From Phyllobates terribilis (lineage: Eukaryota), in contig NW_027362769.1 of assembly GCF_046119375.1 (NCBI RefSeq), forward strand, positions 126,976,001 to 127,040,000: 64,000 bases of DNA, written 5' to 3'. The first letter of the stretch is position 1; each line of letters starts with the position of its first letter. The notes under the pieces are model-generated. The model was not told the DNA's origin and searched no databases. It was given only the letters and a program-made list of their open reading frames with translations. Shown in pieces: positions 477 through 47,688 of the stretch. A program made the position numbers and the translations under genes.

Positions 477-2060
477 GAAGCGTCTCTCCAAGCAAACCAG
501 CTGTGGAACAAGAGAAGCCGGCTGTTTATCTACCGTGAGAAGCTGTGCCGGAGGTACGTCAATCCAAAAACCCATGAGATGGTATGGCAGATAGTGGTCC
601 CCAAGACAGACATCCAAATGGTGTTGGAGGCCTACCACGATCAGGCTGGGCACTTTGGCTGGAAAAAGCTAGAGACCCTGCTGAAGTGTCGATTCTACTG
701 GGTAGGAATGCGCAGCTCCATCGAGCGGTGGTGCCGGGACTGTGGACCCTGTGGCCTCAGAAGAAAGGACTACAGCAGCCAGAAGGCACCCCTGCAACCC
801 ATCAAGACGACTCGACCCCTGGAGATCGTGGCCCTGGACCATGTCAAGTTGTCACCCAGCTGGTCAGGGTACTCCTACGCACTGACCATGGTGGATCACT
901 ACTCCAGTTTCCTGGTGGTCGCCCCCGTCAAAGACCTGACGGCAGAGACAGCAGCAAAGACGTTCCAGGCGTATTTCTGTAGACCTCATGGATATCCTGA
1001 GCAGGTGTTGACGGACCAAGGCCCGGCCTTTGAGGCTGAGTTGTTCAAGGAGTTCTGCCATCTATACGGGTGTAAGAAGATAAGAACTACACCGTACCAC
1101 CCACAAACCAATGGTCTCTGTGAAAAGATGAACAACATCATCATCGACCTGCTAAAGACCATACCACTTGAGGAGAGAAATCAGTGGCCAGACCTACTAC
1201 CCGACTTAGTGGATCTGTACAACCATATACCAGTAAGTTCCACCAACTCCATTCCGGCATATCTCATGCGAGCAAGACCTGGGAAGCTGCCCATGGATCT
1301 GGAGCTTGGTGTTGTCGAGCCTGAAGCTGATATGACCACTGAGGATTGGGACACGACCAGACAAGAACAATACAGAAGGGTACAAGCCTGTGTCGAGGAC
1401 AGTCTCACTCGGGTGAGGGACAAGCAGGATGCTCAATACAACAGAGGTGCCCAAGCAGAACCTTTCACACCTGGTGAAACAGTATTGAAAAGAAAGAGAA
1501 GAAACCATAAACTTGATGACCAGTGGGAAAAAGAACCCTACACTGTGTTGAATTCAAGATTTGATAATAAAAAGACCTGCATAATTAGTAGAGATGGAGG
1601 AAGGACGACTGCAACAGTGTCCAGGGATCACCTAAAGTTGTGTCCAGATCTACTGAAACCCCAAAAAGAAGTGCCTCTCACCGTACCGGAGGAGCCTAAA
1701 GAAGCAGTGATACACACTGAGTTAGGAGATTTCCCGGCAGATTGGCCCCAACTAGGAGGAGCAGTAATCATCACTGTAATCACCTTCTACCCACAGCAAG
1801 AAGAACCTGTGAGTGCTGCAGAAGAGCCTGATCAAGCAGAATCCCTGGAAGAAGGATCCCCGGTTGGAACAGAGCAAGAAGGCCCAGCCAATGGTATGCT
1901 TGCTAGTCCAGTAGGGAGGTCAATACAGTCATGTAGCCCCTCCACACCTAGTACTGACACATTGGGAGGTAGTGCACCTACTAGTACTTCACGCATCCCG
2001 GTGCTACGCAGATCAACACGTAGCATGCGAGGTCAACCCCCTGACAGGTACAGAGAGTAA
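477..2060 (+). pseudogene. Gypsy (family B) pol 3' portion: integrase, interrupted upstream
   Basis: HHCC zinc finger (YHDQAGHFGW...WCRDCGPC) and D,D35E core (ALDHV / LTDQG / NGLCEKMN); clearly homologous to the integrase in 25788-28217; stop at 2060. Confidence 0.9.
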
Positions 2061-2651
2061 AGTAAAACTCTGAAAATGTAGATAGTTACCCCTGGGGTAT
2101 TATATAGCATTGAATTAAATTGTACTGTAGTATTGTGTGTTTTCATGCATATGTATATTATTTTGTGCTTTGCTTTATTATTGAACAGTTTAAGTTATAT
2201 GGACACTTTCCCTAATGACTTCCTTTATTGTTTACCTAAGAACTGCGTGGCTGAGGACTGTGTGCAGCCCAAAAACTGCTTCTTGTATATAATTGCACTC
2301 CCTGGAGTGCCCCTTCAGGTGACCTCAGAAGGAAAACCTGTCTGGAGTGGCTCTACTGGAGGTCCAACTCGGGATCTTCATGCCCTGAAGCCACCCCAGG
2401 GCCTACGTTGAGGGTTTGGGACAGGTCCCTCAAACCACCAAGTACTCTACCCTGTGAGATGGACATCCTATCTGGGAACCTCACCATAAGAGACTTGAAT
2501 TCTGAGGACGCTTTGTACCTGTTTATGTTATTATGCAACGTTTAAGAAATGTGCCTCCCATAAAGGGAAGAGTTATTGTATTGTTCATGTTTACTATTGT
2601 TGTTTTAAAATATACTTCAGCCCGGGAGGGCTGAGCTTTGCTAGGGGGGAA

Positions 2652-3777
2652 TGTGGAGCCCAGCTATGCTTGGTACCACAGATCCTAGAAGTGTGCATTG
2701 ATGGAATCCTCCACAAGAGGCCCCCATAAACATTCACACATCTCCACCTTCCACCTCATACCAGCAGAGGGAGCCCGTTAGGGATATAAATAGGGAAGGT
2801 GGAGCTAGGCAGCTCAGTTCCTCTGAAGAGTTCCTGCAGTAGAGAAGCTTGAGATAGGTCAGTCTGCAGTGGAGCTCAATCTAGTCTAGAGAACTCAGTT
2901 AATAGTTCAGCAGTGGAGCACGAGGCTCCAGCTAGCTAGATTCAGGGAGCTCAGTTACAGCTTAAGGTGTGCCGGCGCCATAAGATCGGTGAAGCGCGGA
3001 AAGCTGCCGTTAGTGTGTATAGCATAGTTTGGGCCCGAGTAGGTCGAAGGCGAGTGGAGAGTTAGTAACATAGGGGGCAGAGGAGCTTAACTAGCTCACC
3101 CCGAAGAATTTACCGGACACCAGTTCCGAGCTTACCGGGATCTCCAAGACCCAGTAAGGCATAACCGGAATCCCTGGAAGACTACAGGTCCCAGGTTCAC
3201 CAGAGAGCTGATACGTAACAGAGCCAGGAGACACATAGACCCCGTAAGCTGGGAGCTACCACACCGTCAGCCGGTGCAGGACAGAGACAAAGTTAGGCCT
3301 AGCTCCAGGCAGGTCAGAAACTTACTACGCAGAGGCAAGAAGCAGGAGGCCCTACACCCGCTCATTGGGGAGGATCCTGATATGCACCCTTCACCCTACA
3401 GTGCTCCGGGATGTGCCTGAGTTTCCACCAGTAAAAGGTACAGAAGTGACTACCGTGTCCGTCCCTGTTCTTGCTGTGACCCGGCTGGGTTTCGCCTGCC
3501 CTGCATCCCCTGCTCCATACGCTGCCCTGAGGCCTAGCTCCACCTGTGGGGAGCTATACCATCGAGCTGCCTTGTCACCGGCCTCAGTGGACTGCCGCAG
3601 CGCTGGTGATTCTCACTAGAAACCACAGGTGGCGTCACGAACTTTCATAAAATTTACAAACAATCCCCTTTTAAAAGCTGACCCCAGGGTACGGACCCGG
3701 GAGCCGACCACCGCGACATCCCCAAAGGCCAGGCAAAGGCCCGGGTACCGAGTCATCCCCATCGCCTGGGCTAGTCA
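2652..3777 (+). mobile_element. 3' LTR of Gypsy family B
   Basis: PPT AGGGGGGAA (2643-2651) immediately precedes TG at 2652; TATA-like GGATATAAATA and AGTAAA poly(A)-like signal; ends GGGCTAGTCA at 3777 after a U5 tail homologous to family A and C LTR ends. Confidence 0.8.
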
Positions 3778-3789
3778 CTTACTCCCCTT

Positions 3790-11400: not shown

Positions 11401-14400
11401 TCCAAGTCACTAAGGAATGGATGACCCTTGATCTCAAATGCTCCTCCTGGAAAAATAAAAATAAAAGTGATGTGGATATTTTCAGAGATTTCTCCATATC
11501 TGACAAGTTTATCTTAATCTGAACACATGATATAACTGAGCCGACATGAAGGAAATAGACTGAAAGTCTTAGTATGGAGAACTAGAAATGGACAAGCTGA
11601 TAGAGAAGTGCTGGTCCTCATGGACATGAGTGATATGTCCTTGGTGTTATAAAGGAATATTAATACTATTATATATGTTACCTGTCCCAAGTCTATTCAC
11701 AGGATTTGTTCTTAGCAGCTCAGTGATGAGATTCTGAGCATCCGGGGGAGGAGCGGGATCACTATCCCAAATTATGTCTCCTGTTGTATAGAAAATAACA
11801 TGTTTTTAATGGACTGTACTATAAAGCAAAAGAAATAACTAAACCAATGTAACTAGTCAAAGTAAAGATCAAATAATTCTACTTACTAATGACAACATTT
11901 TTGTAAAGCCTATTAAGGGAATCCCCATCAAAAGGTACACATCCCACAAGAAATTCATATAGGATTATGCCCATTGACCACCAGTCAACAGGTCTTCCAT
12001 AGCCTTGCTTCAGGAGGACCTCTGGGGCTGTGTAATACAGGGTGCCACAGACCTGGAAACCAATAGAAAAAGGATGAGATTGATGAAACTATAATTATGA
12101 CAAGTTCTTGCCATAAAATCGGAATTTAAAGAAAATGAAATCAGAGGAAAAGTTCTCTAGAAATAAAGAACGTAGAGAGAAGACAATACAATGACATTTG
12201 TAAAGAACAAGCTGAGTTCTTGTAAGTGTTACCAACCTCTCGATCCTGGAACTCTCTGCTGATGTCCTGTGCTAATTCCTTATAGGTTTTGGTTTTTGGT
12301 ATCATTAGACCAAGCTTTGAAAGCCCAAAATCGGTGACTTTAATGTGTCCCGAAGATGTTATCAGGAGGCTGTGAAAGAGAAGATGGTTTTAGCCTCACA
12401 CACAATGTGATATTAAGTGATAACTTTACTCCCTTTATTATAATACAGGGGGCACTTACTTCTCCGGCTTCAGGTCTCTGTGCACCACACCGTAACTATG
12501 CAGGTATTCCAAAGCAAGAACCGCTTCTGCAAAGTACAAACGGGCCAAGGGGACAGATAAATGACCCCTGGTGCTTAGAAGGGTCCCACAGTCTCCACCT
12601 AAAGAAGAAAGAAAATATGACCGGTGAGGGGTTGATACAGCAGATCACCATGATGTATAATGAGAAGTGAGCGGAGACATTGGGGCAGGAGAGAATATAG
12701 AAAGATATAATGTATAGTGTCATAATATTAGTCTGAAGTCATGGTGAAATGTCCTCCATGTAACTAATAACATAAAGTGATGTGACGTCTACAGCTGGAG
12801 ATATGGACATACTCAGTGCGGACATACAGAGGAGATCACACAGATCAATGACTTTCCGGCCATCTTGGTATTAGATCACCTATAGTAAATGCTCTGTGGG
12901 GATGTAACCGTTCACATGGACAAGTCTTAATGATATGAGGTGATAAGAAGAAAGCAGACATGGGCTGAATATAATACAATGTAGGTGTCTTACCTCCTGC
13001 ATACTCCATGACCATACACAGGTGAGATCTAGTAGGGAATGAGCAGAGCATGGAGACCACGAAGGGACAATCTGCGAATGTTAAGATGTCCCTCTCCTGA
13101 AAGGCCCATTCCACTTTCTGTGGAGTATCCAGATTCTGCTTAGCCAATTTCTTCATAGCAAAGATCTGTTGGGAGTCTTTATGGCGCACTAAGTAGACGG
13201 CACTGGAGAGAAGGAGAATCCATGGGTTATAATAAATCCTTATTAACAGTCCGTCTATAGAAGTCATTATACGATCTTCTGTCCTAATGTTTAATACTTT
13301 AATACTAGAAGTCCGGCCGTCACTAGAAATCCACATCTAGAAATCCATGAAATATCACTATATAGATCACCTATGGGAGGTGGGCACAATGCCACGTCTG
13401 CCGGGACCCTCACCCCAGCCAATCAGTCTTATCAGCTTCATAATGGAGCCCCGAAAAAAGTGAAGAACGGCCAGAGGAGCGGAAAGCTCTGATGGAGGGG
13501 GCAGCATAAGGACAGATGAGGGTCTCGGACAGGCGAGGGTAATGTATTATTGTCATCTCTTTCCTTAACAGTTTGATTTGTTACAGATCAGTTTGGTCAT
13601 CTCTATATAAAAGACCTGCATAGTGACATTTAGATGTGGACAGTGATGTGGACTCATATCGTTTCCCTATGATAACACTGAATGGCCGAGCACAGAGGCA
13701 GAAGCATTGTCATAGGGAACCCTGAGAAATGTGGATTATGGTAGCAGAAATCTCACCCAAAAGCTCCACTGCTGATCAGTTTAGATGTCTCATAGTCGCT
13801 CATGTGCGGCTCTCCTGCCGGGACCAATGATTTGATCAAGTCCTAAAAAAGAATAAGAAATAACACTAAGATATAGAAGCTGCAGGAAAACATCTCAGGA
13901 CGTAAAATCTTCTCTCTCCTATATTATGTCCCGGCTGATTTACACTGATCCGATGTAGGTGACGATACAAGCAGGACGCTCCGCATGGATGTAATATAAA
14001 GGGGATCCTCTATACACCGGTATCATTGTATAGTGCTGGATAATACGCAAGATCACACAGGGGAGAACTTAAAAGGAATCTGTCAGCAGGTTTTTGCTAT
14101 GTAATCTAAGAGCTGCATGATGTAGCGGCAGAGACCCTCAGTCCAGAGATGTGTCACTTACTAGGCTGTGAGCTGTTGTTTCAATAAAATCAGTGTTTTA
14201 TCAGCAGAAGAATGTCACTAAAGGACTAGCTGTCTTATGCCATATAGTTCTATTGTTCTGTGCAACCCCGTCCCCACCACTGATTAGCAGGTTTGTGTCT
14301 ATGCACAGTTTACACAGAAAGCAGCCAATCAGTGGTGTGGGCGGAGTTATACAGAGGTCAGCATTCAGAGCACTGCTAGATCTGCTGCAGAGAAAACTGT

Positions 14401-19785: not shown

Positions 19786-22694
19786 GGACACACTGCTGGT
19801 GCAGTCGGTGCAGCTGCACCAGGGCCCAGAGGCAAGGGGGGCCCATGGATGTAGGGGCATACTGCTCATGACAGAAGACCATGCAACCGCTATGGGGCCT
19901 CTCAGTCAAGGGGCCCGATTTTGATTGACCCAATGTCACGCATAGTGTAGGAAAGACAAAGTGCAACACGAAGGGATGAGGGGAAGGGAGCCCAGACACT
20001 AAGGAAAGGGGAGATATCACCCTGTCTCCCCTACCATCCCTATATTGGTTCCTCACCAATCTCCGAACAGGAATCCTAAGTCCTGTCTTTCCCTAGAGCT
20101 TGGCCCTGGATAGGTAAGGGTGGGGATGAGCACTGGTCAGTCCCCACTAAACAACTAAAGACAAAAAGGAAAACAAACACAGGTGGAAGCAACTTAGCTT
20201 GAGCCGACTTCAGAGAGATTTAAGAAGTCGTCTGTAATGTCAAACAAAGTAACCTTCTGCAACCAGCTGCGGAACGACTGTCTGCTGCATCTGACACACC
20301 CGTGACACCCATCCACTCCCACCTGCCATACAGTGGTTTCAACATCCACTGTTAAAAAAAATGTCAATCTTTTAAGTACGAGTTTTACAGGATACCATTG
20401 TATGGAATAATGCAGCGTACTACAATATTCCATACTTTAATTTGTAGAATTCTACCAGATACAAGATGGTATCGATACCAGACATATAATGTAATATAAT
20501 ATAATATATACTTGGTTGGGCTCTGCCAGTTCCATCATTAATCACGTAACCACGAGGATGCACTTTGCACACTTGCTGTCATGTGCCAACTAGAGAGTCA
20601 GCCACGTCCTACAGTGTTCTAGTCACTGACACTAGCTGTCACTTGACTGCAAGTATGATTGTGCTGGAACCAGCAGAACCGAATCCTAACGGAGATATAC
20701 ACTGCTCAAAAAAATAAAGGGAACACTCAAATAACACATCCTAGATCTGAATGAATGAAATATTCTCATTGAATATTTTGTTATGTACAGAGTTGAATGT
20801 GCTGACAACAAAATCACACAAAAATCATCAATGGAAATCAAATTCATTAACCAATGGAGGCCTGGATTTGAAGTAACCCCCAAAATTAAAGTGGAAAAAC
20901 ACACTACAGGCTGATCCAACTTTGATGTAATGTCCTTAAAACAATTGAGGCTCAGTACCGTGTGTGGCCACCACGTGCCTGTATGACCTCCCTACAACGC
21001 CTGGGCATGCTCCTGATGAGGTTGCGGATGGTCTCCTGTGGGATCTCCTCCCAGACCTGGACTAAAGCATCCGCCAACTCCTGGACAGTCTGTGGTGCAA
21101 CATGACGTTGGTGGATGGAGCGAGACATGATGTCCCAGATGTGCTCAATCGGACTCAGGTCTGGGGAATGGGCGGGCCAGTGCATAGCTTCAATGCCTTC
21201 ATCTTGCAGGAGCTGCTGACACACTCCAGCCACATGAGGTCTGGCATTGTCCTGCATTAGGAGGAACCCAGGGCCAACCGCACCAGCATGTGGTCTCACA
21301 AGGGGTCTGAGGATCTCATCTTGGTACCTAATGGCAGTCAGGCTACCTCTGGCGAGCACATGGAGGGCTGTGCGGCCCTCCAAAGAAATGCCACCCAACA
21401 CCATTACTGACCCACTGCCAAATCGATCATACTGAAGAATGTTGCAGGCAGCAGATCGCTCTCCATGGCATCTCCAGACTCTGTCACGTCTGTCACATGT
21501 GCTCAGTGTGAACCTGCTTTCATCTGTGAAGAGCACAGGGCGCTAGTGGCAACTTTGCCAATCCTGGTGTTCTGTGGCAAATGCCAAACGTCCTGCACGG
21601 TGTTGGGCTGTGAGCACAACCCCCATCTGTGGACGTCGGGCCCTCATACCAACCTCATGGAGTTGGTTTCTAACCGTTTGTGCAGACACATGTGTGGCAC
21701 CCCAGGGGTCTGGTTTCCACAGTAACGGCAATGTTATGTCTGAGAGCAGGTGGGAGGTCTCTTGGTCAGGGATCCTATGCATGCCACACCTCCTGCCCAG
21801 TCCTGGGAGGGGAAGAACTTCCCCTATATAAACCTGGGGCTGAGGCAGGGTTAGTGAGAAGAGTAGAGAGAAGAAGAGAAGCAGTAATAGGAAAGGAAGA
21901 CCAGGAGCTCTGTGGGAATCGTGCTAAGAAGAGGTCAGGGGCTGGTAGCTGTAGAGCTCGCCCTGATCGAAGCTTTCTCACCGGACCCGGAGTCCGAGGC
22001 TGTGGGGACTAACTTTGCCCCAGCAGCAGAATCCGTCAGGCAGGGGATTTCCGGTCCTCTGGCCAAGAAACCCGAAGGCACGGTCACACGCGTGGGACCA
22101 TCACCGCCGTCTTGGAGCGGAAGCAAATAGAAGGCCCCGAGTCACCGGCCATACGGGTGAGCACCACACGGTACACTCAGGGACGTGAGCTACTTTTACC
22201 CGCCTCTAGCAAGGTAGCCAGAAGAGTACAGTTAGTTGGGAAGGCCTACAGCTCCGCCTGGCCAGGGGAAATCCCATCTGCTCAAGGACTGACCAGGCCC
22301 CATTCGCTAGCCAGTACTCCGGGAGGGTCTGTCTTTGTCACCAGTAAAGACCCTGAACTACACCGTACCGTCTCCGAGTGGTTCCTGCTACCCCCATCAT
22401 CCACGTCGGCTGCCCTGAGGCCATACCCCTCCCGTTGGGGGTTATACCATCTCCGCTGCACAACTGTGTCACCGGCCTCAGCGGTCTACCCTGCAGCGGC
22501 GGCTCCATAGCTGCATTCAACGGGTGGCGTAGTCGTCCAATATCTACTGCTACGTACACCGCCACTCAGTCTGACTCCCTGGGCACGGACCGGGTCACCG
22601 CCACAAGGACTACCACCCCTAATAGATCCGGCTCCGGGTAACCCCTGCGTGCGCAACGCTACATCAGAAAGCAGGCCCAGGGGCGCGTCAACTT

Positions 22695-22713
22695 TTGCCG
22701 TAGTCGGCAGGAT
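22695..22713 (+). promoter_or_regulatory. Primer-binding site (tRNA-Ser), one mismatch
   Basis: TGCCGTAGTCGGCAGGATT versus TGGCGTAGTCGGCAGGATT, the complement of the vertebrate tRNA-Ser(AGA/TGA) 3' end (recalled sequence). Confidence 0.8.
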
Positions 22714-23125
22714 TTCGTGCCCGCAACCACCGGGTACTGCGTGCCTGAAAAAGACTGTTCAAACTTACCAGTGGTGAAGATTCCCGCCATCCGGCGCCAT
22801 CTTCTACCTTCTTCCCGCCATCCGCGAAGTTTTCCCGCCATCCGGCGCCATCTTCTGCCTTCTTCCCGCCATCCGTGGAGTTTTCCTGCCGTTGGACGCC
22901 ATCTTGAGGACGCCGCGCGGGAAGAAGAGGGGCGTGGACTCCGAAAGCGCGCGAGAACTGAAGCCCCGCCTCACGTCCGGACGTTGCGTAAGGTCCTGGA
23001 AGGAGCCCAGCCGACGTCACAGGAGCGCGACGGAAGGTCCTCAACCCTGACGATCCACTGCGGAGCCGCGGCCTACGGAAGAGGATCATCGCAAGGTAGG
23101 CCACGGTCCACTAGGGGGGAGAAGG

Positions 23126-24106
23126 ATGTCGGATACGGAGGAGAGCTTCACCGCTCCAACCCCCGCCAGCGCCACCGCTGTTGCGGTCATGCCTTTCACC
23201 ATGCCCTATATCCCGGGGGCAGCCTGGCTACCCCAGTACTCAGGGGAGTCACATACCCTGCATGACTTTAGAGAAAAGCTGGATAGCCTCTTCCAGGTGT
23301 ACCCCCTCACAGAAGAGCAAAAAGTGAGCATTCTGGTGGCCCAATTAACCGGGGCAGCCCAAAGGGAGGTAAAGTCCTGGCCACCTGGGGGGAGGACTGT
23401 CGCAGGGATACTAACCCGGCTGAGGGACACCTTTGATACCCACACCTCAGCCGAGATCAAGCTTAGATTCTACGGGTGCAAGCAGCGAGCACAAGAGAGT
23501 ATAAGGGACTATGCTCTGAACCTACAAGAGGCCCTGAGAGCCATTAAGCAGACCGACCCTGATGGTGTGGGAGACGAGGACAGGCTGTTGACTGAACAAT
23601 TTATAGAGGGTTTATATTGCAATGCCCACCGAACTCAGTTGCGGGCAATGGCCTTACAGGACCCTCATCTGGGATTTGCACAGTTCAAGGACAGAGCCAT
23701 CCGGGTGCTCCGAGAACCAGCACCAGGTGGCGTTGTGACCCACAGACGCCCCACTACCACTTATCACCAGGAGGCGGCGCCCTTGTCGGCAGGGCCTGTG
23801 GGAACTGATGCGCAGGCTTTGAGCAATGACCCGGCTCCAGACCTGCACCATCAGGTCCAAGAGCTAGCTAAAAGCGTTGCTGCGCTAACCAGAACTGTGC
23901 AGTCTTTACAGGTTTCCACTTCGGGGAAGATCCAGCTGGCATCCGGACCGGAGGACATCCCGTGGCGTCGACCAAGGAGGACCCCACCGGCCAGAGGAAG
24001 ACCCAGCGACCGATACAACGAGGACGGACAACCCATCTGCCGCCGCTGCAATCAACCCGGACATATGGCAAGGTACTGTCCTTTAAACTGGCCCAACCTA
24101 GGGTAG
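23126..24106 (+). CDS. gag: Gypsy Gag (capsid-like region + CCHC zinc knuckle), 326 aa
   Basis: ATG start; retrotransposon-gag-like QESIRDYALNLQ...LLTEQFIEGL; CRRCNQPGHMARYC knuckle. Confidence 0.92.
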   Translation: MSDTEESFTAPTPASATAVAVMPFTMPYIPGAAWLPQYSGESHTLHDFREKLDSLFQVYPLTEEQKVSILVAQLTGAAQREVKSWPPGGRTVAGILTRLRDTFDTHTSAEIKLRFYGCKQRAQESIRDYALNLQEALRAIKQTDPDGVGDEDRLLTEQFIEGLYCNAHRTQLRAMALQDPHLGFAQFKDRAIRVLREPAPGGVVTHRRPTTTYHQEAAPLSAGPVGTDAQALSNDPAPDLHHQVQELAKSVAALTRTVQSLQVSTSGKIQLASGPEDIPWRRPRRTPPARGRPSDRYNEDGQPICRRCNQPGHMARYCPLNWPNLG

Positions 24107-24122
24107 AGGGCCAACCCCTAGG
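24082..24122 (+). promoter_or_regulatory. -1 ribosomal frameshift signal between gag and pol
   Basis: T TTA AAC heptamer in the gag frame at 24082-88; 8-nt spacer; stem CCTAGGG (24097-103) / CCCTAGG (24116-122); pol is in the -1 frame. Confidence 0.8.
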
Positions 24123-27100
24123 AAAAAGATCATCAGGCCCATCGAACTGGCGTGACAAATACGTGGGAGGACGTCCAGTCTTGCCTGTGGTACTGGATGG
24201 CATTCCTATGAGTGCCCTACTGGACACCGGGTCACAGGTCACCACCATCCCGTACGTGCTCTTCAAGCAGTACTGGAATGACTCGGATATAACCCGCTAC
24301 CCTGTCGACGACTTGAGTATCATCGCCAGCAATGGTCAGCTCGTGCCACAGATCGGATTTAAAGAGGTGACCATTAAAATCGGTAGAGTCGAACTGGCAG
24401 CACAGGGACTGATCATTGTAGACATTGACAAACACGAGAGTCACCCAAAGATAACTCTAGGAACTAATGTGATTGAAAATTGTCTTGCAGAAGTGATTTT
24501 CATTTTACAGCAGGTTGCCAAGAACGCCAGCTCCGGCGAGCAGCGAGTGCTCCAGAAAGAGATCCGGGCACTGATGCGACAGCAACAGGTGGAACTCTCC
24601 GGTGGTGAGATTGGTAGCGTGAGAATGTGTGACCCTTTCCCTATTGCCATGCCCCCAAAAAGTGAAATGATGATTTGGTGCCGGGCAGCTATTGGTCTGA
24701 GAGGTAGAGATTACCAGGCAATGGTAGAACCAGTTTACTCAGACAGTAGGCCCACCATTTTGACAGCACGGGGGGTGGTCAATGTACGCCATGGGAGGGT
24801 GCCCGTTCGCGTAGTGAATATCGGGAAGAGGGAAGTGTACCTGCCCAGGTATGCCACGCTGGCCAAATTGTATACCATCAATCGAAATTCCATACAGTCC
24901 ATAGAACCCTTGCCTCCATCTTCTCCGGAGGAAGGTAACGGCTCTGAGAAAACAATGGAGGACTGGTGTCAGCAACTACATTTGGGTACTGACTCCACTC
25001 CCTCACACCAGAAACAGGGAGTCTATCGGGTGGTTCAAGAGTATGAGAGAGTGTTTAGTAAACACCCGTTAGACTTCGGGCGAGTCAAGGGGGTAGAACA
25101 CCACATCCCCACGGGAGATCATCCTCCCATAAAGGAGAGATACCGACCCGTACCCCCTGCACATTACCAACACGCCAAGGGGATGCTCAGAGACATGAAG
25201 GAGGCTGGGGTAATCAGGGATAGCTGTAGCCCCTGGGCAGCTCCACTAGTCTTGGTTAAAAAAAAAGACAACACCATGAGAATGTGTGTAGATTACCGGA
25301 AAATCAACCATATCACACACAAAGATGCGTACCCTTTACCAAGGATAGAGGAGTCTTTGGCTGCTTTAAGATCTGCTAATTTCTTCTCCACTTTGGATCT
25401 TACTAGCGGGTACTGGCAGGTTCCTGTAGCAGAGGCGGACCGGGAGAAGACCGCATTCACCACCCCGATGGGACTTAGCGAGTTTACCTGCATGCCGTTC
25501 GGACTCTGCAACGCACCAGGAACCTTCCAACGGTTGATGGAATGCTGTCTGGGACACCGAAACTTCGAGACGTTCCTGCTATACCTGGACGATGTCATCG
25601 TCTATTCCAAAACCTACGAGGATCACCTGAAACACCTGGCGGAAGTGTTCGAAGCTCTGGCAAACTACGGCCTAAAGGTGAAACCCTCCAAGTGTCACCT
25701 CCTGAAACCAAAGGTGCAGTACCTGGGACACGTGGTGAGCGCTGACGGAGTGGCTCCCGACCCTGATAAGATCACCGCAATTAAGGAATGCCAAGTCCCT
25801 CCAGTGTAAAGGAAGTGCGGCAGTTCCTAGGGTTGGTAGGCTACTACCGCAGATTCATTCCCGGTTTCACCAAAAAGGCAGCTCCTATGCAGGACCTCCT
25901 GATAGGCCAGTCCCGGAAGGCCAAGAACCAGAAGCCGCCCTTCAGATGGGAGAAGTTAGAAGAAGAGTCCTTTCGCCAGCTGAAGATGGCCCTCACGGGG
26001 GATGAAATCCTGGCATACCCTGATTACAGCCAGCCCTTTATCCTCTACACCGACGCCAGTAACATTGGGCTAGGAGCCGTACTGTCCCAGACCCAGCAGG
26101 GGAAAGAATGGGTAATTGCTTACGCCAGCCGAAAACTGAGACCCACCGAAAGAAACCCTGAGAATTACAGCTCATTCAAGCTGGAGTTCCTGGCAGTGGT
26201 GTGGGCAGTCACCGAACGCTTTAAGCACTACCTCGCCTCTTCCCGGTTCACCGTGTACACGGATAACAACCCGTTGACGCATCTGGACACGGCAAGGCTC
26301 GGTGCCCTGGAGCAGAGATGGATGGCCCGCCTGTCCAACTATGAGTTCACAATCAAATACCGGGCAGGACGCTCCAATACCAACGCGGACGCCCTGTCTA
26401 GGATGCCAAACCTACCAGACGAGGGTGAGGATTCAGAAGATTTGGAAGAGGTCGAACTCCCTGCGTTCCACCGTCATGGGACTGTCCAGTATTCCCACCG
26501 TGTAAGGGGTAAGCAAGCCGCTACGTTCAACCCCTTACCTCACTACAACTGGGCGGAAACGCAAGACAGTGACCCTGCCGTCCGGCTGGTGAAGGAGATG
26601 CTGACTCAGCCAGAAGCTCGCCTTGACCCGGACGCTCCGGAGGAGACCAAGCAACTGTGGGCTGAGAAGAGTCGACTGTTCATTTACAAGGGGAAGTTGT
26701 GCCGCAGAATGGTTAACTCCCGGACGCATGAACTGGTCTGGCAAGTAGTGGTGCCAAGAAGGGACGCAGCTATGGTGATGGAGGCATACCACGACGGGGC
26801 TGGGCACTTCGGATGGACGAAGCTGGAGTTCCTGCTGCGCGGGCGGTTCCATTGGGTAGGCATGAGAGGAACCATCGAGAGGTGGAGCAGAGACTGTGGC
26901 CCATGCAACCTAAGAAGGAAGGACCGTGCCAGCCAGAAGACCCCCCTTCAGTCCATCGTCACCCGGCAGCCGTTGGAACTGGTGGCCTTGGATCATGTAA
27001 AACTGACCCCAAGCAGAAGTGGCTACGTCTACGCATTAACCATCGTGGACCACTACTCCCGGTTCTTGGTTGTCGTCCCCGTCAAGGACTTAACGGCTCA

Positions 27101-28217
27101 AACAGCAGCTAGAGCCTTCCAGCAGCACTTCTGCCGTCCACACGGCTACCCAGAGCAGGTGCTGACGGACCAGGGACCTGCCTTTGAAGCGGAGGTCTTC
27201 CAAGAGTTCTGTACTCTGTATGGCTGCCGGAAGATCAGGATGACACCCTATCATCCGCAAACTAATGGACTTTGTGAGAAAATGAACCAGGTAGTGATAG
27301 ATCTTCTAAAAACATTGCCCCTGGAAGAACGCAGTCTGTGGCCTGAGAAGCTGCCCGACCTGGTGGACCTATACAACTACATCCCTGTAGGTTCCACCAA
27401 CTGTACCCCGGCTTACCTAATGAGGGCAAGGCCTGGTAAGCTACCTGTTGACCTGGAGATGGGAGTCCTGACACCCGAGGACACTTCACCGGAAGCAGAC
27501 TGGGACACAGAGAGGCAGCAGCAGTACCGGAAAGTACAGGAGAGCGTGGAGCGAAGTCTCTGTCTGGCTAGGGAAAGACAAGAGAAAACTTACAACCAGT
27601 ATGCTCCCGCTGTTCCCCTGGTACCCGGAGAGCAGGTGTTGAAGAGGAAGAGACGGCTCCACAAGTTGGACGACCAGTGGGAGAAGGACCCGTACACCGT
27701 ACTGCCCTCAAGCCACGACAACCCAAAGGTTTGTACCATCAGTAAAGACGGAGGGGAAACCACAGCCATTGTATCCCGGGATCACCTGAAGAAGTGTCCC
27801 GAACAGCTACGGAACCCAGAAGGGGAACAAAAAGACCCTCGACCCGTAGAGGAAAGGGAAGATATGGTTAGTACTGTGCTCGGAGACTTCCCTCGGTCCT
27901 GGACTCAAGTCAATGGTGCAGTTGTGGTACCCGTCCTCACGTTCCTCCAACCAGCATCCCAAGTGCCTACGGAGCAACAGGTAGAGCTGGGAGAGCAGCC
28001 GGTCCAGGAGGCAAGGGACTCCACCCAAGCAGAACAGGAGGATCAACCCTCTGCTTATAGTGAGCCTGCCGTACCCCTAGTGAGCCAAAGAGCCCATAGA
28101 CAGCTGCCCAGTTTACCCTTGACAGCTCCTACACCCTGTAGTTCAGGGCCAGACAGTCAGCTCCGTAGGTCCACTAGGGCCACTAGAGGCCAGTTACCCG
28201 CACGTTGGAGGATTTGA
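24082..28217 (+). pseudogene. pol: Gypsy Pol (protease, RT, RNase H, integrase) with one frameshift near 25788
   Basis: LLDTGSQ (PR); YLDDVIVYS (RT); YTDASNIGLGAVL (RH); HHCC and DDE (INT). ORFs 23962-25809 and 25788-28217 are joined by an apparent 1-bp deletion (GAATGCCA where KEWP would need GAATGGCCA). Confidence 0.9.
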
Positions 28218-30158
28218 AGTGTTTAAATTGTTTTATTTGTGGTCACCTGTCTGTTACTTGTAAATAATTATGTGTTTCTAGTTATTTTTAGGAGTCCTTG
28301 GTGGATTTACCGGGAATCCTTGTACAATTGGTTGGAGCGTAACCTAGGAATGGACTAAAGACTGTTAAGGACTCGGGGCAGGACAGACCCCTACCTGGTT
28401 ACGTCTCCCTGTTTGGTGAAATGGACACCTTGCTTTTCTTCCAAAACTGCACCCGGTTGCGGATACGCCGTAACCATCTTTATGTGTTTTTCTTATTGTA
28501 TTATTATTGTTTATACCTTGTTATGTTTTTCTAAAAATATGTTTAGTCCCGGAGTACTAAATTTCACTAGGGGGGAATGTGGCACCCCAGGGGTCTGGTT
28601 TCCACAGTAACGGCAATGTTATGTCTGAGAGCAGGTGGGAGGTCTCTTGGTCAGGGATCCTATGCATGCCACACCTCCTGCCCAGTCCTGGGAGGGGAAG
28701 AACTTCCCCTATATAAACCTGGGGCTGAGGCAGGGTTAGTGAGAAGAGTAGAGAGAAGAAGAGAAGCAGTAATAGGAAAGGAAGACCAGGAGCTCTGTGG
28801 GAATCGTGCTAAGAAGAGGTCAGGGGCTGGTAGCTGTAGAGCTCGCCCTGATCGAAGCTTTGTCACCGGACCCGGAGTCCGAGGCTGTGGGGACTAACTT
28901 TGCTCCAGCAGCAGAATCCGTCAGGCAGGGGATTTCCGGTCCTCTGGCCAAGAAACCCGAAGGCACGGTCACACGCGTGGGACCAGCACCGCCGTCTTGG
29001 AGCGGAAGCAAATAGAAGGCCCCAAGTCACCGGCCATACGGGTGAGCACCACACGGTACACTCAGGGACGTGGGCTACTTTTACCCGCCTCTAGCAAGGT
29101 AGCCAGAAGAGTACAGTTAGTTTGGAAGGCCTACAGCTCCGCCTGGCCAGGGGAAATCCCATCTGCTCAAGGACTGACCAGGCCCCATTCGCTAGCCAGT
29201 ACTCCGGGAGGGTCTGTCTTTGTCACCAGTAAAGACCCTGAACTACACCGTACCGTCTCAGAGTGGTTCCTGCTACCCCCATCATCCACGTCGGCTGCCC
29301 TGAGGCCATACCCCTCCCGTTGGGGGTTATACCATCTCCGCTGCAGAACTGTGTCACCGGCCTCAGCGGTCTACCCTGCAGCGGCGGCTCCATAGCTGCA
29401 TTCAACGGGTGGCGTAGTCGTCCAATATCTACTGCTACGTACACCGCCACTCAGTCTGACTCCCTGGGCACGGACCGGGTCACCGCCACAAGGACTACCA
29501 CCCCTAATAGATCCGGCTCCGGGTAACCCCTGCGTGCGCAACGCTACATCAGAAAGCAGGCCCAGGGGCGCGTCACATGCACATTTGTGGCCTGCTAGAG
29601 GTCATTTTGCAGGGCTCTGGCAGTGCTCCTCCTGTTCCTCCTTGCACAAAGGAGGAGGTAACGGTCCTGCTGCTGGGTTGTTGTCCTCCTATGGCTCCCT
29701 CCACATCTCCTGGTATCTGCTCCATGCTCTGGACACTGTGCTGACAGACACAGCTACCCTTCTTGCCACAGCTCGCACTGATGTGCCATCCTGGATGAAC
29801 TGCACTACCTGAGCAACTTCTGTGGGTTGTACTGTAGACACCGCCTCATGCTACTGTACGTCTAGGGGTGAGAGCAATGGCAAAATGAAAAAGTGACCAA
29901 AACATCAGCCAAAAAGGATGAGAACAGAGAAATGGTCTGTGGTCACCACCTGCAGAACCACTCCTTTATAGGTGGTATCTTGATATTTGCCTATCATTTC
30001 TACCAGTTGTCTGTTCCATTTGCACAACAGCAGGAGAAATTGATTCACAATCAGTGTTGCTTCATAACTGGACAGGTAGATTTCACAGAAGTGTTATTGA
30101 CTTGGAGTTACATTGTGTTGTTTAAGTGTTCCCTTTATTTTTTTGAGCAGTGTATATA

Positions 30159-40007: not shown

Positions 40008-43000
40008 TGTAAATTAACTAAAATAGCTTACACTCGCACTATCAATGGCAAAAGGGTAATAAAAAGGAAATTAGAACCGTGGAAGAGGAAAACCACAGTT
40101 CTAGTTCTCTGGCCTACACCGGAATCTTTTAAACAGATATATTTGTGTCTGAACAGTCAGCGAGACACTCAAACTGTTTTTTTATGTAAAAAAGGCAAAA
40201 AAGTGGGTAATACAGAGATTTGAACCGTGGAACTGCAAAACCACAGTTCTAGTTATCCAGCCGAAACCAGACTCGTTTAAACAGATATATTTGTGTCTGA
40301 ACACTCACAGACACACACAATTTTTTTTTTTTTTTTGGGGGGGGAGAATACCAAAAGGTTAATGAGACAGGTATTTGTACAGTCTGACTGAGAGAAAAAA
40401 AAAAGAGGATTTAGATGAAAAAAAAAGGATTTTTCCTGGCCCCTGAGACCGGGAGCTAAGTCTAGTAATTTGACCAGCAGCAGCACACAGGACTGTAATG
40501 CAGTGTTTGTTGGTATAACCATTGCGTCTCCTATACAGCCTGCCTGCTTGATATCTGGGATGGATATTAGTCCTCAGAAGGACTGTTTGTTTGATTTGGC
40601 AGGCTTTATAGACCCTACACTACCTATTTTGCACTATATATCTCTCCCTAACTCAGCAACACTGATCCTACACTGTCTGATCCCGGGCGACTGTGTCCAA
40701 GATGGCGGCGCACGGTTTTAAATACTCGAGGTGACGCTGTGCGTCCAGCCAATCACTGTAATGCCCACAACATGGCTGCGGCATTACAGTGACTGGCTGG
40801 CAATCCCTGCATGTTCATTGGCTCTGTAAAGAGCGCCAAACATGCAGAGCGGAGACCGGAGCTCCCGCCCGAGTAACCCAGAAATGCTCGGTGCTCGCCG
40901 AACATCCCGAGTAGTGAGATGCTCGGGCGAGTACCGAGCAGTGTCGAGCATGCTCGCTCAACACTAGTGAATATCCATTGTACAATCTCCTGAAAGCGCA
41001 GACCCAGAAACGAATGGGAGAAATTCAGGAGGCCATTAAAACACTACAGATGGCAATGAGCTTACCGGGAATGAAAAAGGCCGGATCTTCTCTAAAGGCA
41101 AAAGGAAGAAAAGTAGAAATCGGAGCAAGTGACCGAGTGTCCATCTTCCTGGAGCTCGTCGATTGTCATAGCATGAACGGGGAGCAGGTAACGGAGGGAA
41201 AGCGTCCACTCACTCCGGTCCCATCACTACTAGAGAACTTGGTATCTTGTTTGTAAGAAATATACTTTGCTATCATTTACATACGGACGTATAAAGCCGC
41301 CTTTACAGTTACATGTCAGGTTTGCAATTGCATAGAAAACATCACTCCTCTCTGTAATCCGGTAATAAGAACTGTATACCTGCAGAGTATTAGTAAAAAG
41401 GGATTTATTGGCACATTTAAAGAGTAAAAAATAAAATGTATATGTGACGCGCCCCCTGGGCCATATTCTTTTAGGGGGAATATCCGGAGCCGGATCAGAT
41501 GGGGGTTGTAGTCTTCCGAGTGGCTGTGACCCGGTCCGTGCCCAGGGTGTCAAACTCAGTTGTATGTGGCAGTCATACAGATGTTATAAGTTCTTTATTG
41601 TCGACTACGCCACCCGTTGTGTTGCGGTCACTGTGGCCGCCGCTGCAGCAGGGTCCGCTGAGGCTGGTGGTGTAGGTGCAGCTTTGGTGATATAACCCCC
41701 AACGGGTGGGGTATAGCCTCAGGGGGATCAGGTGCAGAGGATGGGAGTTGTGGTGATGCAGTGTAGACGGCAATCAGAGACAGAGTCGGGTTATGCAGTT
41801 TAGGATGTTTTACTCACTGCTGATGTTCTGGTCACTCCAGCTTCGAGTGACCTCCCGAGCCGTGCTGCGTCCACCAGGTTCTGGATCCAGCCAACTCCCA
41901 AATAAGTCCGGAGCGTGACCCTGAGCTCTCCTTCAGTCCTTTCTCTGGCCGTCCCCACTATTGATCCACCCAGGTCCAGCTCCCTCGGGCCTTCTGTTGG
42001 GACACCCTTGGCCTTGGGTTCCCTGACCCTCCTCGTGGTATGCCTTCGTGGTGGATGTGGTGGGTGACCGTGGCAAACGCTGCCCACGGTCTCCGGTCTC
42101 TGGCTGGGGAGTGTTTTTACCCCCACCAGCTTGGGTTCCGGTACCCTGTGCCGACTCTTCACCCGGGGATTTAAGTTGGGTTCTTGGAGTCCTTTTCTTC
42201 TGGTTCCCCCTCTGGGTCTCTCTCTCTCCTCTCTCACTCTGGGTCTCTCTTCTCCTCTGCTCCTGACTTTCTCTCTGCAACTGACCCTGTTCTTAGTTGG
42301 TGCCCACCTTATATACACCCTCTATGTGTGAGCTCAGGTGACCAGCACCCAATGAGCTCCTATCTTTACCCAGGCTGCTCCCCCTATCTGCCCCTACACT
42401 ACTTGGGATGTTCCACCCCCCTCCCACTCCAGCCAGGAACAGACTCGGTCGTACCTGCACATTTCTAAGTGGGAGTACCGTCGGTCTGCTCCTCGGAAAT
42501 GGGATGTGTGTAGTGCATGCAGCCTACCGAGCTCAGTTCCACACTCCATCCTTACCTGGGAGTGGAATATCACACCTCTGGGTTGAGGTGCAATACCCCT
42601 GTAGCAGCCGAATCCTCAGGGTGCTACATTCCCCCCTGGTAAATCACAGCACGTCCTCGGGCTGTAAGACAAAAACATCACAAAACATACAAAATTTTTC
42701 ATAAACATATAAAACATATAAAACATATAAAACATTATATAAGTTAGCAGCATCAATAAAACTTTTTATAATAAACATTCTCGTCGTCTCTTGTTCCTCC
42801 TCCGGTCACTGTGCAACGTGTGACCGGGTAAAGTGCGACAGTCTCTCTGGAAAACTGGTTTTCCCTATAAAACCGGTAGGGGGCGCTTTAGGACGCGCAA
42901 CTATATACAGGGGATATGGCCGCTCTCAGTCCTCGGCCAGTTAGGGAGGGAAAGGGAATGGCTGCTCACAGTCCTCAGCCTGTGGGATTAAGGGTAAGCG

Positions 43001-43103: not shown

Positions 43104-44870
43104 TCAACAACGTCTTCCTCCTGCTCTTTCTTTGGGGATCTCAGCTTCAGACCCGTCCGGATCCTCTTGCTCTTCCTCCTCACATCGCAGCTCCTCCTCT
43201 GTCAGGCGATGCACCTGGAGGGCGTAAGGTCCTTTAGCACACTTGTGCCGGGTGAAGGTGACCTCGTCCCCGATATAAAGGTCACGACCTCTGTGCCCCT
43301 CCGGCAGATGGGACTCCACATCTCTGCGCGTGACAAAGACGTCGCCGGGGGTGTTGTGGTCTCTGATGAAGCCCCACCCATGCTGCATGTTGAACTTAAT
43401 TACAGTCCCGGTGGTGCGGGGACTGTGCGCTGCACGGGGGTCCCTCCTGGTTCGGCTCTTCTGCTCGGCGCTCCTTACTTGAGCCTGTTGTTCCCGGACC
43501 CGCCTCTCTCTCCGCTCCCTCGCAAACTCCTCGAGCTGCTGTCGGCAGCACTCAGCACGCTCCGCTGCAGCTGCCCTGGTTTCTTGAGTGAACCCCATTA
43601 GGTCTTCTCCGGTGGGGTCCCACTCAAATTGGGTCTCTTCAAGCGGGGGCGAGATCCTTATCACGGGCTTCGGAGCCGGAATCAGGGGTGCACACATGGC
43701 CCCAACTCTCCTCTGGTGCTCCAGTTCATAATATTTCTGGGGCCAGATGAAAGGCTGCCCGTCCGGCCACGTGTGCTGGGCAAACAAGTCCTCTCCCAGA
43801 CGCGGCACCCTTGGTTTTACGGGTGCGGGCGCGGTGGTGGTGGCGCCCGGGTTGCCCAGGCCTTGCGGCCAGGCCTGGGGCACCTGGAAGGTGAAGGGCA
43901 CCGTCAGGACGGCGGCGCCCTGGGCTACCTGGCCTTGCGGCCAGGCCGGAGGCTCCGCGGAGGTAGGGGGCGCTGTTGGTGATGCGACGCCCGGGAATTC
44001 TAGGCCCTGCGACCAGGCTGGTGGTACTTCCTGCTTGGTCACGCTCGGGGTCGAGGCGTGTGACGTCACAGGGGTCGCGGCTGCGGCTTCCGGTTGAGGC
44101 CTAGTCTGTGGCGGTGACATGGCGTTTTCGGGCACAGCAGGGGGACTTTCGGGCTCTGCGACGGGGAGCTGGGGCAGGTAAGCGGTGTCCTGGTTTGGGG
44201 TATAGACGTCCCCTTTACCTGTCTCCATGCGTTCGGCTCCCTTCTCGGCGCCGTCTCCGGCCTTGGGTCCTCCCGCGCCATCCTCAGAGGCGGTCTGTCT
44301 CCTCATCTTGGCTGGCGTGCTCCGGGTCTTGGTTTGCTGGGCCATCTCTCGGCTCCACTCCGCCAATGTCTCTCGCTGTACCCGGGCCATCCTCCGTGCG
44401 AGGCCCTCCAGGGCAGTCTGTGCACACTCCCGGTCTCGGGGGAGCTGTGCTAGGACCTCCACTAAGCCTAGTGGGGTCGTGGTTTCCAGCAGGCTCCTGA
44501 CCAACGGGTCGGTGCTGCTCTGCTCTTCTTCCAGCAGGCTCCTGGCCAGCGGGCCGGTGCTGCTCTGCTCTCTGGACATCTCCGGGTGAGCTTCTCTGCT
44601 CCTCCTCTCCAGGCTTCTTGCCTCCGGGTGCGCTCGCTCCAGACTGCTCCAGGCGGCACCCATCTTTGTTCTCTCCTTTCGTCTCCTCCCCCTTCGAGGG
44701 CGGTCCCGGGGCCACTTGGTGACTGTCAGCTCCAGGGGCTGTTCTTTCACGCTGACAGACACCTCTAGCATCACAGTCTCTGTTGGTGGGGGCGGTTCCC
44801 ACTTTTGGCGCCATTTTCGGTCCTGGCCCACGATGGGAGGTGGCCTCTTGCCATCCTCTGGCACGCCCAT
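43104..44870 (-). CDS. 588-aa (from ATG 44870; up to 680 aa from ATG 45146) low-complexity protein with a C-terminal cold-shock (OB-fold) domain
   Basis: Uninterrupted ORF. CSD at about 43203-43415: TGTVIKFNMQHGWGFI (RNP1-like)...DVFV (RNP2-like)...GDEVTF...KGPYALQV. Upstream are Pro/Ala-rich and E/R-rich coiled-coil-like segments. ATG 44870 has A at -3 and G at +4. Confidence 0.82.
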   Translation of the reverse strand: MGVPEDGKRPPPIVGQDRKWRQKWEPPPPTETVMLEVSVSVKEQPLELTVTKWPRDRPRRGRRRKERTKMGAAWSSLERAHPEARSLERRSREAHPEMSREQSSTGPLARSLLEEEQSSTDPLVRSLLETTTPLGLVEVLAQLPRDRECAQTALEGLARRMARVQRETLAEWSREMAQQTKTRSTPAKMRRQTASEDGAGGPKAGDGAEKGAERMETGKGDVYTPNQDTAYLPQLPVAEPESPPAVPENAMSPPQTRPQPEAAAATPVTSHASTPSVTKQEVPPAWSQGLEFPGVASPTAPPTSAEPPAWPQGQVAQGAAVLTVPFTFQVPQAWPQGLGNPGATTTAPAPVKPRVPRLGEDLFAQHTWPDGQPFIWPQKYYELEHQRRVGAMCAPLIPAPKPVIRISPPLEETQFEWDPTGEDLMGFTQETRAAAAERAECCRQQLEEFARERRERRVREQQAQVRSAEQKSRTRRDPRAAHSPRTTGTVIKFNMQHGWGFIRDHNTPGDVFVTRRDVESHLPEGHRGRDLYIGDEVTFTRHKCAKGPYALQVHRLTEEELRCEEEEQEDPDGSEAEIPKERAGGRRC

Positions 44871-45103
44871 AATGGCGTCCGCTCTGACAAGGCGGGAAAC
44901 CTTTGGAAATGGCGGGAATCGCTTCCCAGTGGCGGGAAACTCTGCAGATGGCGGGAAAAAGCTGTTAATGGCGGACAACCGGCGGGAATCGACTGGTGAT
45001 GGGGTCCGATGGCGGGGACCCTCCAGAACCGGCAGGAGACTTCTTTTTGAGGTAAACTCGCACTTTTCTTCAGGCACGCAGTACCCGGGTGTTGTGGGCA
45101 CGT

Positions 45104-45122
45104 AATCCTGCCGACTACGCCA
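45104..45122 (-). promoter_or_regulatory. Primer-binding site, perfect 19-nt tRNA-Ser complement
   Basis: TGGCGTAGTCGGCAGGATT, 4 nt from the 5' LTR end. Confidence 0.9.
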
Positions 45123-47688
45123 AAGTTGACGCGCCCCCTGGGCCATATTCTTTTAGGGGGAATATCCGGAGCCGGATCAGATGGGGGTTGTAGTCTTCCG
45201 AGTGGCTGTGACCCGGTCCGTGCCCAGGGTGTCAAACTCAGTTGTATGTGGCAGTCATACAGATGTTATAAGTTCTTTATTGTCGACTACGCCACCCGTT
45301 GTGTTGCGGTCACTGTGGCCGCCGCTGCAGCAGGGTCCGCTGAGGCTGGTGGTGTAGGTGCAGCTTTGGTGATATAACCCCCAACGGGTGGGGTATAGCC
45401 TCAGGGGGATCAGGTGCAGAGGATGGGAGTTGTGGTGATGCAGTGTAGACGGCAATCAGAGACAGAGTCGGGTTATGCAGTTTAGGATGTTTTACTCACT
45501 GCTGATGTTCTGGTCACTCCAGCTTCGAGTGACCTCCCGAGCCGTGCTGCGTCCACCAGGTTCTGGATCCAGCCAACTCCCAAATAAGTCCGGAGCGTGA
45601 CCCTGAGCTCTCCTTCAGTCCTTTCTCTGGCCGTCCCCACTATTGATCCACCCAGGTCCAGCTCCCTCGGGCCTTCTGTTGGGACACCCTTGGCCTTGGG
45701 TTCCCTGACCCTCCTCGTGGTATGCCTTCGTGGTGGATGTGGTGGGTGACCGTGGCAAACGCTGCCCACGGTCTCCGGTCTCTGGCTGGGGAGTGTTTTT
45801 ACCCCCACCAGCTTGGGTTCCGGTACCCTGTGCCGACTCTTCACCCGGGGATTTAAGTTGGGTTCTTGGAGTCCTTTTCTTCTGGTTCCCCCTCTGGGTC
45901 TCTCTCTCTCCTCTCTCACTCTGGGTCTCTCTTCTCCTCTGCTCCTGACTTTCTCTCTGCAACTGACCCTGTTCTTAGTTGGTGCCCACCTTATATACAC
46001 CCTCTATGTGTGAGCTCAGGTGACCAGCACCCAATGAGCTCCTATCTTTACCCAGGCTGCTCCCCCTATCTGCCCCTACACTACTTGGGATGTTCCACCC
46101 CCCTCCCACTCCAGCCAGGAACAGACTCGGTCGTACCTGCACATTTCTAAGTGGGAGTACCGTCGGTCTGCTCCTCGGAAATGGGATGTGTGTAGTGCAT
46201 GCAGCCTACCGAGCTCAGTTCCACACTCCATCCTTACCTGGGAGTGGAATATCACACCTCTGGGTTGAGGTGCAATACCCCTGTAGCAGCCGAATCCTCA
46301 GGGTGCTACATATGTTTTAGGCCTTTTAATTCTGAGCAGATTGGTGAGGGACTGAGTCCTGAGACCCCCACACATCATTCAATAGGGTTGTGTGCTCAGT
46401 CAGGGGGTTGTGCGCTCAGCCGGGGTGGGGGGGGGGGTGTTTACGATCTGGCAGTAGTTCTGTGCTCCTATGACTTTTTAATTAATCCATACTCTGCTGT
46501 GCACTTGCTCTCCTGTCACCTGAGCTGCACACTCTTAAAAGTTTTTTTAAGCAATTGGCGGGGGGTTTCAGGACCTGGACCCCCACCTATCTGCTCAGAT
46601 TTAAAGGGCGTAAAATATGTATAAAAAATTTACAAAAGTTTCTTTACACTTTAAATGTAAGATCCCCACAATCATAGATCATAAAAATGGAGAAAGTGTT
46701 TCAGCTCTGCAGTCCCTCTAAACTCTTTCCCTGCACCGCTGAAACTGGCCACCACTGTTTAGAGTAACATATTGATTGCTGAGGGTCCAACCGTTAGTAC
46801 CCCCCACTCATCCAGAGAACGGGGAAATGGCCTCTTCATTCTCATTCACAGTCTTCTGTGATGGTGCCAGAGGTCGGACCCCCATATCTTGCTCATAGTG
46901 GTCATTATTATTGCCTTGCAGTCGGCCGACTGTGGCCACGGGTGCCGGATTATCAGATCTCCCCCAGGAGCTGCACTCTGAAAGCTGTTTTTTCTTAGGA
47001 GACAACCACCTTTAATTTCCAGAATATTTTTCTTCTAGCGAGTGTGTTGCATCTGTCCTGCCTCTTATAATAAATCTTTTCCACTTTCCCTTTTATATCT
47101 ACAGCACGAAGCTGCCAAAGTCTTACAAGATGCAATCAATGAATTCTCCGGGACAGCGGAGGAGCTGCGCCTCATGATAGCCAACGCTGAGCTGGCCCTG
47201 TCTCACGGGGACGTGGAACGAGCTTTGTCCATGCTCCGAAATGTTTCTCCAGAGCAGCCATATTTTGTCCAGACCAAGGAGAAAATGGCTGAGGTATATC
47301 TCCAGCACAGGAAAGATAAGAAGCTCTATATCGGCTGCTACAGGTGACATACAGGAAAATGTTCGCCGCGTGTCTCTCATGCATTTGTTACAGGGGTCTT
47401 CCATTCACCACTCATCCAGTAAACTACTTTTAAGCCACAAAAGTGAGGGGTTTATTGCTTATAGCACCCGTAATGTGCCAGCACTGATAACAGAGGCGTC
47501 AGGATAATGAAAACGTTCCAGAGAATGCTATCTTAGCAAGGAAATTAGTGATATAAGGTGGCAAAAAACACCCGTGAACACCATTACTCGGTATAAGATT
47601 TCTCTAGTATGCAAAGCTAAATTTTTATTTTGCAGAGATCCAATATGAAGAATCAAGTGAGATGATTCTATTACTGCAGCCACTAGAG

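Follow-up and report, generated by a model that had tools for sequence, protein, structure and literature searches.

The window analysed here, a stretch of 64,000 nucleotides of the Phyllobates terribilis genome, contains a Gypsy element (family A) and, on the opposite strand, a second LTR element (family C) that lacks pol, which raises the question of how C has been able to transpose. The first-pass annotation proposed that it is mobilised in trans by the Gag and Pol of an A-like helper, and this proposal is well supported by the lack of pol in all 45 full C copies examined, by hybrid A/C insertions, by target sites and by ages. Judged from sequence, we give mobilisation of C in trans by the A clade a probability of ca. 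0.85, the helper being the A clade as a whole and not the broken copy that neighbours C in the window. The features of both copies are given in Table 1.

Table 1. Features of the A and C copies found in the window
Feature	Position	Strand	Remarks
Family A, whole element	21693-29575	+	Gypsy; 998-bp LTRs; target duplication CATG
A 5' LTR	21693..22690	+	998 bp; 8 differences from the 3' LTR
A U5 block common to family C	22390..22690	+	by sequence comparison
A tRNA-Ser primer-binding site	22696..22713	+	one mismatch in the window copy
A leader	22714..23125	+	block common to C; four TCCCGCC repeats after it
A gag	23126..24106	+	326 aa, CCHC knuckle
A pol	24208..28217	+	protease-RT-RNase H-integrase; two frames, split near 25790-25809
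A polypurine tract (PPT)	28569..28577	+	
A 3' LTR	28578..29575	+	target duplication CATG
Family C, whole element	46310-41445	-	4.9 kb; identical LTRs of 1184 bp; target duplication CATA
C 5' LTR	45127..46310	-	1184 bp, no difference from the 3' LTR
C U5 common to A	about 45406-45127	-	within the 5' LTR
C tRNA-Ser primer-binding site	45105..45122	-	perfect, 18 nt
C single ORF	43104..45146	-	at most 680 aa; no gag or pol domain
Cold-shock domain (CSD)	43209..43412	-	PF00313, E 2e-8; dN/dS 0.08 in 36 copies
C polypurine tract	42629..42637	-	
C 3' LTR	41445..42628	-	target duplication CATA

The A copy is a Ty3/Gypsy LTR retrotransposon by its TG...CA LTRs, primer site, PPT and gag-then-pol domain order; the Gypsy assignment comes from domains and gene order, the protease match being weak (E 0.089) and the PNMA and Retrotrans_gag profile matches of gag being weak and under their cut-offs. 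Since its pol lies in two frames, this copy does not possess the unbroken gag and pol of an autonomous element and is non-autonomous as it stands. At the gag/pol overlap, a TTTAAAC (24082-24088) accompanied by a short inverted repeat resembles what we take to be a -1 frameshift signal, and the exact 10-nt motif of this overlap is present in 20 of 46 A copies. The element is inserted within a Tc1/mariner-like element (20695-30157) having inverted arms at 20695-20738 and 30114-30157 and an ORF (20952-21404) that is presumably transposase-like. Elsewhere in the window, positions 1-3778 contain an A-type LTR end at ca. 476 and, immediately behind it, the integrase half of a different Gypsy family with its polypurine tract (2643) and what seems to be another LTR, an arrangement that suggests an A copy inserted into a second Gypsy family. 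A kinase-like ORF fragment occurs at 12845-13336.

Family C has the LTR pair, primer site, PPT and target duplication that, together with the lack of pol, define a non-autonomous LTR retrotransposon, and its ORF is composed of predicted helices and a Pro-rich region followed by the CSD. In most copies the frame is open across the primer site and leader (45146-44600 in the window; median 653 codons), a part of the ORF in which selection is weak, so that the true start codon is uncertain. Six more near-identical C copies, all on the same strand, occur near the window (G000:C9:123.0-130.8 Mb) and are probably segmental duplications. C is covered by four sequencing runs of uncertain kind, a coverage which says nothing on transcription.

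Common signals, target sites and ages

As the first-pass annotation had described, the LTRs of both families end in GCCCAGGGG(G)CGCGTCA followed by ACTT and the primer site, and the common leader block, the AGGGGGGAA tracts and the two U5 motifs all lie where it had placed them. An alignment of A with C, which it had proposed as a check, gives 72% over 364 nt in BLASTN (E 1.6e-50). Local alignment scores reach 161 for U5 and 88 for the leader, versus 32 and 28 for the best of 200 shuffles, with a common leader stretch of ca. 60 nt, and those of U3, R and the 3'UTR are at the level of chance (21 vs 25, 25 vs 29 and 26 vs 28, respectively; 200 shuffles). The statement that the U3 regions are unrelated is thus correct for U3 and incomplete, as the unrelated part of the LTR comprises U3 and R, with boundaries inferred from the TATA (LTR position 133 in A and 314 in C) and AGTAAA motifs (651 and 815). 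Regarding the target duplications, CATG was properly read for A, and the TATG given for C is in fact CATA, the TG of the LTR start having been taken into it; an ATG ending, put forward as a family trait, occurs at just 4 of 33 A sites and 7 of 36 C sites.

An antisense template oligonucleotide for a human tRNA-Ser variant, given in the accessible part of PMC3299991, begins with a sequence matching the primer site, and the tRNA-Ser assignment is taken from this source since no host tRNA-Ser gene was recovered: a motif search for such genes gave 73 matches, and the two loci that were read (L379 and L380) are primer sites of other elements at which ARAGORN detected no tRNA. These two belong to a further LTR group with the same primer site, a similar LTR end and a different leader. 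Both leaders in the window also carry TCCCGCC repeats (four in A, 22760-22900; five in C, 45030-44880) and, in the same intervals, GCCAT-type motifs; the two motifs are similar to E2F and YY1 sites, or may instead be packaging signals.

In the 10.6-Gb genome, the motif joining the PPT to the C U3 has 20,242 exact matches, its A equivalent (A PPT and A U3) 17,543 and the shared leader motif 48,119, or roughly 0.3 leader sites per 64 kb, so that it is no surprise to meet both families in one window. Our sample corresponds to the first 100 leader-bearing elements of contig C1, a single 21-Mb stretch, and comprises 46 A elements, 7 diverged gag-pol relatives, 45 elements with the C ORF and 2 mosaics in which A LTRs flank a C-type ORF tail. 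Helpers do exist, as gag and pol are both open in 17 of the 46 A copies.

Perfect 4-bp duplications were found at 33 unique A sites and 36 unique C sites, after one duplicate had been dropped; two elements (L124 and L145) display 5-base duplications, as opposed to the 4 bases seen in most. Both families favour TG-NNNN-CA around the duplication, with TG preceding it at 22/33 A and 20/36 C sites (random, 7%) and CA following it at 11/33 and 22/36 (random, 9%). The logos are indistinguishable (permutation p 0.70, r 0.88), so that the overlap in target preference posed as a test by the first-pass annotation is borne out, this preference being one that, with A and C as the only families compared, may be clade-wide. 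Ages, which had likewise been expected to overlap, do so: LTR divergence extends over 0-1.45% in A (median 0.52%, n=38) and 0-1.02% in C (median 0.17%, n=41), C being younger overall (Mann-Whitney p 1e-4) and, with such a median, recently mobile.

The cold-shock protein of family C

Among 36 aligned C copies, dN/dS is lowest in the CSD (0.08), intermediate in the ORF body (0.23-0.46) and the primer-leader part (0.60), and highest in the 3'UTR used as control (0.85); these ratios are descriptive because the copy pairs share ancestry. No indel affects the CSD, and 39 of the 56 found in the ORF body keep the frame. Comparisons among copies thus indicate that the CSD is under strong purifying selection. 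Against the PDB, the domain matches bacterial Csp and Y-box proteins with E values of 3.5e-5 to 8e-3, too weak for a donor to be named, and the single-domain proteins closest to it, all uncharacterised, belong to Ranitomeya variabilis, R. imitator and Anomaloglossus baeobatrachus. The sole close protein, P0001, may stem from the same genome and is therefore not counted as a second species. A single-sequence fold of the C ORF is of low confidence (mean pLDDT 46) and speaks neither for nor against a capsid fold, and an Atlas search, with a best value of 0.80, adds no information.

The CSD motif is absent from 6 of 45 C copies and is cut in a mosaic subfamily with A LTRs; since CSD-less copies have also transposed, transposition does not always require the domain in cis, and the protein is an aid rather than a requirement. 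An internal deletion that removes it (about 1369 to 1967 of the C internal region) recurs across many dispersed copies and was seen in L097, L223, L245, L247, L237 and L340; its carriers form a CSD-less sub-lineage that stayed mobile.

As the gene is carried by the passenger alone and is under selection, a benefit to C's own RNA is the simplest reading, and the protein is predicted to bind that RNA and to protect or escort it, which we consider likely. A more elaborate scenario, which we put forward tentatively, is that C is a parasite that captured a CSD protein in place of gag-pol and uses it as a cis-preferring RNA chaperone or adaptor to load its RNA into helper particles, with related proteins across poison frogs and with a genome that keeps direct fossils of intermolecular plus-strand transfer; if true, this loading of its own RNA let C rival its helper in copy number. 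It is unlikely that the relationship is instead mutualistic, in line with the first-pass annotation, which had the satellite contribute a CSD protein, with C supplying this protein in trans to A particles and so improving A replication: the dN/dS of 0.08, which does not itself tell which partner is served, the CSD relatives recorded from Ranitomeya and Anomaloglossus and the probable meeting of A and C RNAs in particles would agree with such an exchange, but selection on a passenger-only gene may be more simply explained by a benefit to its own RNA, and A gag already has its own CCHC knuckle.

Hybrid insertions and the source of the enzymes

Mobilisation of C by the A clade would bring the RNAs of both families together, and elements combining the two were indeed found. 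A/C mosaics represent 5 of the 100 sampled elements, and the identity of their blocks to the donor family reaches 96-100%. In one of them, L097, an A 5' LTR (97-100% identical to A copies) precedes a body and a 3' LTR of C type (92-100% identical to C copies), the whole being flanked by the duplication CTTA. An 80-nt junction search, in which the A end was exactly joined to the C leader, gave nine matches. Four of these, including L097, are discordant in the same way, a complete A 5' LTR standing before C-type body and 3' LTR sequence, and all four are flanked by perfect 4-bp duplications (CTTA, CAAT, CATG and TATG), the chance of such a match between two unrelated insertion ends being p 0.023. 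In the discordant elements the switch falls after the last A-diagnostic base of the LTR and before the first base beyond the primer site that is diagnostic of C, a location demanded by the search pattern for three of the four, which leaves L097 as the sole unselected case. One discordant element interrupts an older C LTR, the two halves of which can be put back together with an overlap of 4 bases (240/240 matched pairs).

Four other junction matches have C-then-A LTRs at both ends, all with duplications. These mosaic LTRs are 99.6-99.8% identical between ends and join ca. 30 nt after the TATA of A, near its inferred transcription start, in three cases at a short CAGAGAAAG overlap. The ninth match has C LTRs with an A-like end. 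The A-derived parts of hybrids are 97-99% identical to present A copies, and two mosaic subfamilies have been amplified to about 40 or more copies each among the best matches; of the copies read, 8 of 8 and 9 of 10 have duplications. In a U5 tree built from the 82 of 100 sampled elements that have the anchor motif, A and C are intermixed (8 label changes versus a minimum of 2), and C is monophyletic in 0% of bootstraps. The reciprocal hybrid, with a C 5' LTR and an A body, was found in none of the 53 A-type elements of the sample.

Several candidates were discarded. L186, at first sight a discordant hybrid, is a C copy nested in A pol, and such nested C-type copies with clean duplications occur at L186/L187 and L328. 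Three of six apparent cases of a C end joined to an A leader (L248, L015 and L167) are point variants of the C leader. A further DNA search for hybrids having an A LTR and a C leader yielded one new case, the other 28 loci read being ordinary C.

The structures retained are observed as such, and strand transfer between templates fits them. C RNA would be packaged with A RNA into particles made by A, co-packaging of the two being likely, and the reverse transcriptase and integrase of A would then copy and insert C. C has retained exactly the signals that the A enzymes would need, namely the primer site, U5, LTR ends, PPT and first leader block, and has its own U3 and R, the putative promoter. 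LTR reverse transcription includes a plus-strand transfer step; a jump at the primer site from an A to a C template during this step would place an A 5' LTR on a C body. A minus-strand jump from the 5' end of A RNA would give rise to C-then-A mosaic LTRs, a reading based on strand transfer during LTR reverse transcription as reviewed in the available text of PMC6894440. Such exchanges would be likely to keep the common signals in step.

Hybrids may also arise from DNA-level events (gene conversion, ectopic crossover or LTR-circle recombination) or from assembly artefacts, in which case they would be silent on packaging. The U5 and leader homology of tens of thousands of copies offers a substrate for such events, and the hybrids are known from assembled sequence, not from long reads. 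However, two insertions recombined by crossover would no longer be flanked by the duplication that 4 of 4 discordant elements keep, conversion of a whole LTR would have only ca. 10 bp of homology on the left side, and recombination of circles would swap U5 ends, whereas each LTR is of its own type to the last diagnostic base. The near identity of the mosaic LTRs within an element and their join near the inferred RNA 5' end of A also argue against a DNA-level origin, which we consider very improbable.

C-type 3' LTRs were further inspected at 60 loci, none of which lies after an integrase: all 30 picked by position, which overlap the 100-element sample in part, and all 30 having an A-like T before the tract (30 of 32 sites read) are found behind C-type sequence. 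With this sampling, a C-LTR family with pol would be detectable only above ca. 5% of copies. An A-type 3' end on a C U3 has no exact match genome-wide. The 158 matches to the pattern of a C 3' end on an A U3 correspond to a diverged A subfamily, none of the 30 read being hybrid. That C shares its signals with A by descent only and is moved by another, unseen autonomous family with C LTRs is thus very improbable: seven diverged gag-pol elements of the sample and a further element group with a different leader do use the same primer site, and sampling is partial, but pol is absent from the 45 full copies and the 60 3' LTR loci (partly overlapping sets), the genome-wide search for an A 3' end on a C U3 was empty, and descent alone cannot produce hybrid A parts so close to present A copies.

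Comparison with known systems

Helper/passenger LTR pairs, LTR swapping, pol-less frog elements and CSD capture by endogenous retroviruses (ERVs) are already known. Literature searches for a CSD-bearing non-autonomous LTR element and for discordant-LTR insertions found nothing relevant within a coverage that left most subscription papers, Repbase and bioRxiv supplements outside, and the terms "cold shock" and "non-autonomous" are absent from the main text of a poison-frog genome preprint. The pairing of a helper with its passenger is usually inferred from common ends, and such partnerships are described as hard to reconstruct in the accessible part of a 2026 survey (PMC13570524). Single insertions that combine an LTR of A with one of C and keep their duplication link the passenger C to a helper clade that can be named, and they allow the rate at which strands are transferred between families to be counted. 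At ca. 5 kb each, the more than 20,000 C copies would represent, by simple arithmetic, ca. 100 Mb of this giant frog genome, in an element that pol-based annotation does not allow to be classified, and a selected CSD as its only gene raises the question of how passengers compete for particles.

In mouse, the passenger RNAs of ETn/MusD and VL30/MLV are moved or co-packaged by the Gag-Pol of a helper; unlike C, the ETn and VL30 passengers are essentially non-coding and are retroviral, not Gypsy. LARDs and TRIMs have no coding capacity, TRIMs being also very short, and C corresponds to neither, with its 4.9 kb and an ORF under purifying selection. The partnership of SARE and SNRE in soybean, with LTR swapping, was reportedly described by Du et al. 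in 2010. It is presented as an autonomous-nonautonomous association in the available portions of PMC4079214 and PMC6894440, and, as far as these extend, A and C resemble it by an abundant passenger, common cis signals and LTR parts exchanged with the helper. Indeed, A and C display the features of a helper/passenger pair of this type in their cis signals, ages, targets and LTR and leader exchange. They differ from it, within the same portions of these sources, in being a vertebrate Gypsy pair whose U3 and R are unrelated and not subtypes, in the selected cold-shock protein encoded by C, and in single insertions that have two different LTRs and an intact duplication. The mosaic insertions, read as products of strand transfer, are akin to the recombination between co-packaged RNAs treated in the part of PMC6894440 consulted.

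The TR-GAG elements, as characterised in the accessible part of PMC4350172, have a single ORF that encodes Gag, while the only Pfam match of the C ORF is the CSD. Among frog LTR elements, 1A11 and Xretpos of Xenopus have, like C, an ORF without pol homology; according to the available text of PMC4585706, they occur in tens to hundreds of copies and their mobility is thought to be lost, in contrast to the abundant and recently mobile C, and that text names no helper for them, so that they are likened to C by description only. Finally, CSDs have been captured repeatedly by endogenous retroviruses of birds (46 ERVs in the accessible part of PMC12287698), as C carries one, with the difference that these are retroviruses classified by their RT whereas in C the CSD ORF is the sole gene.
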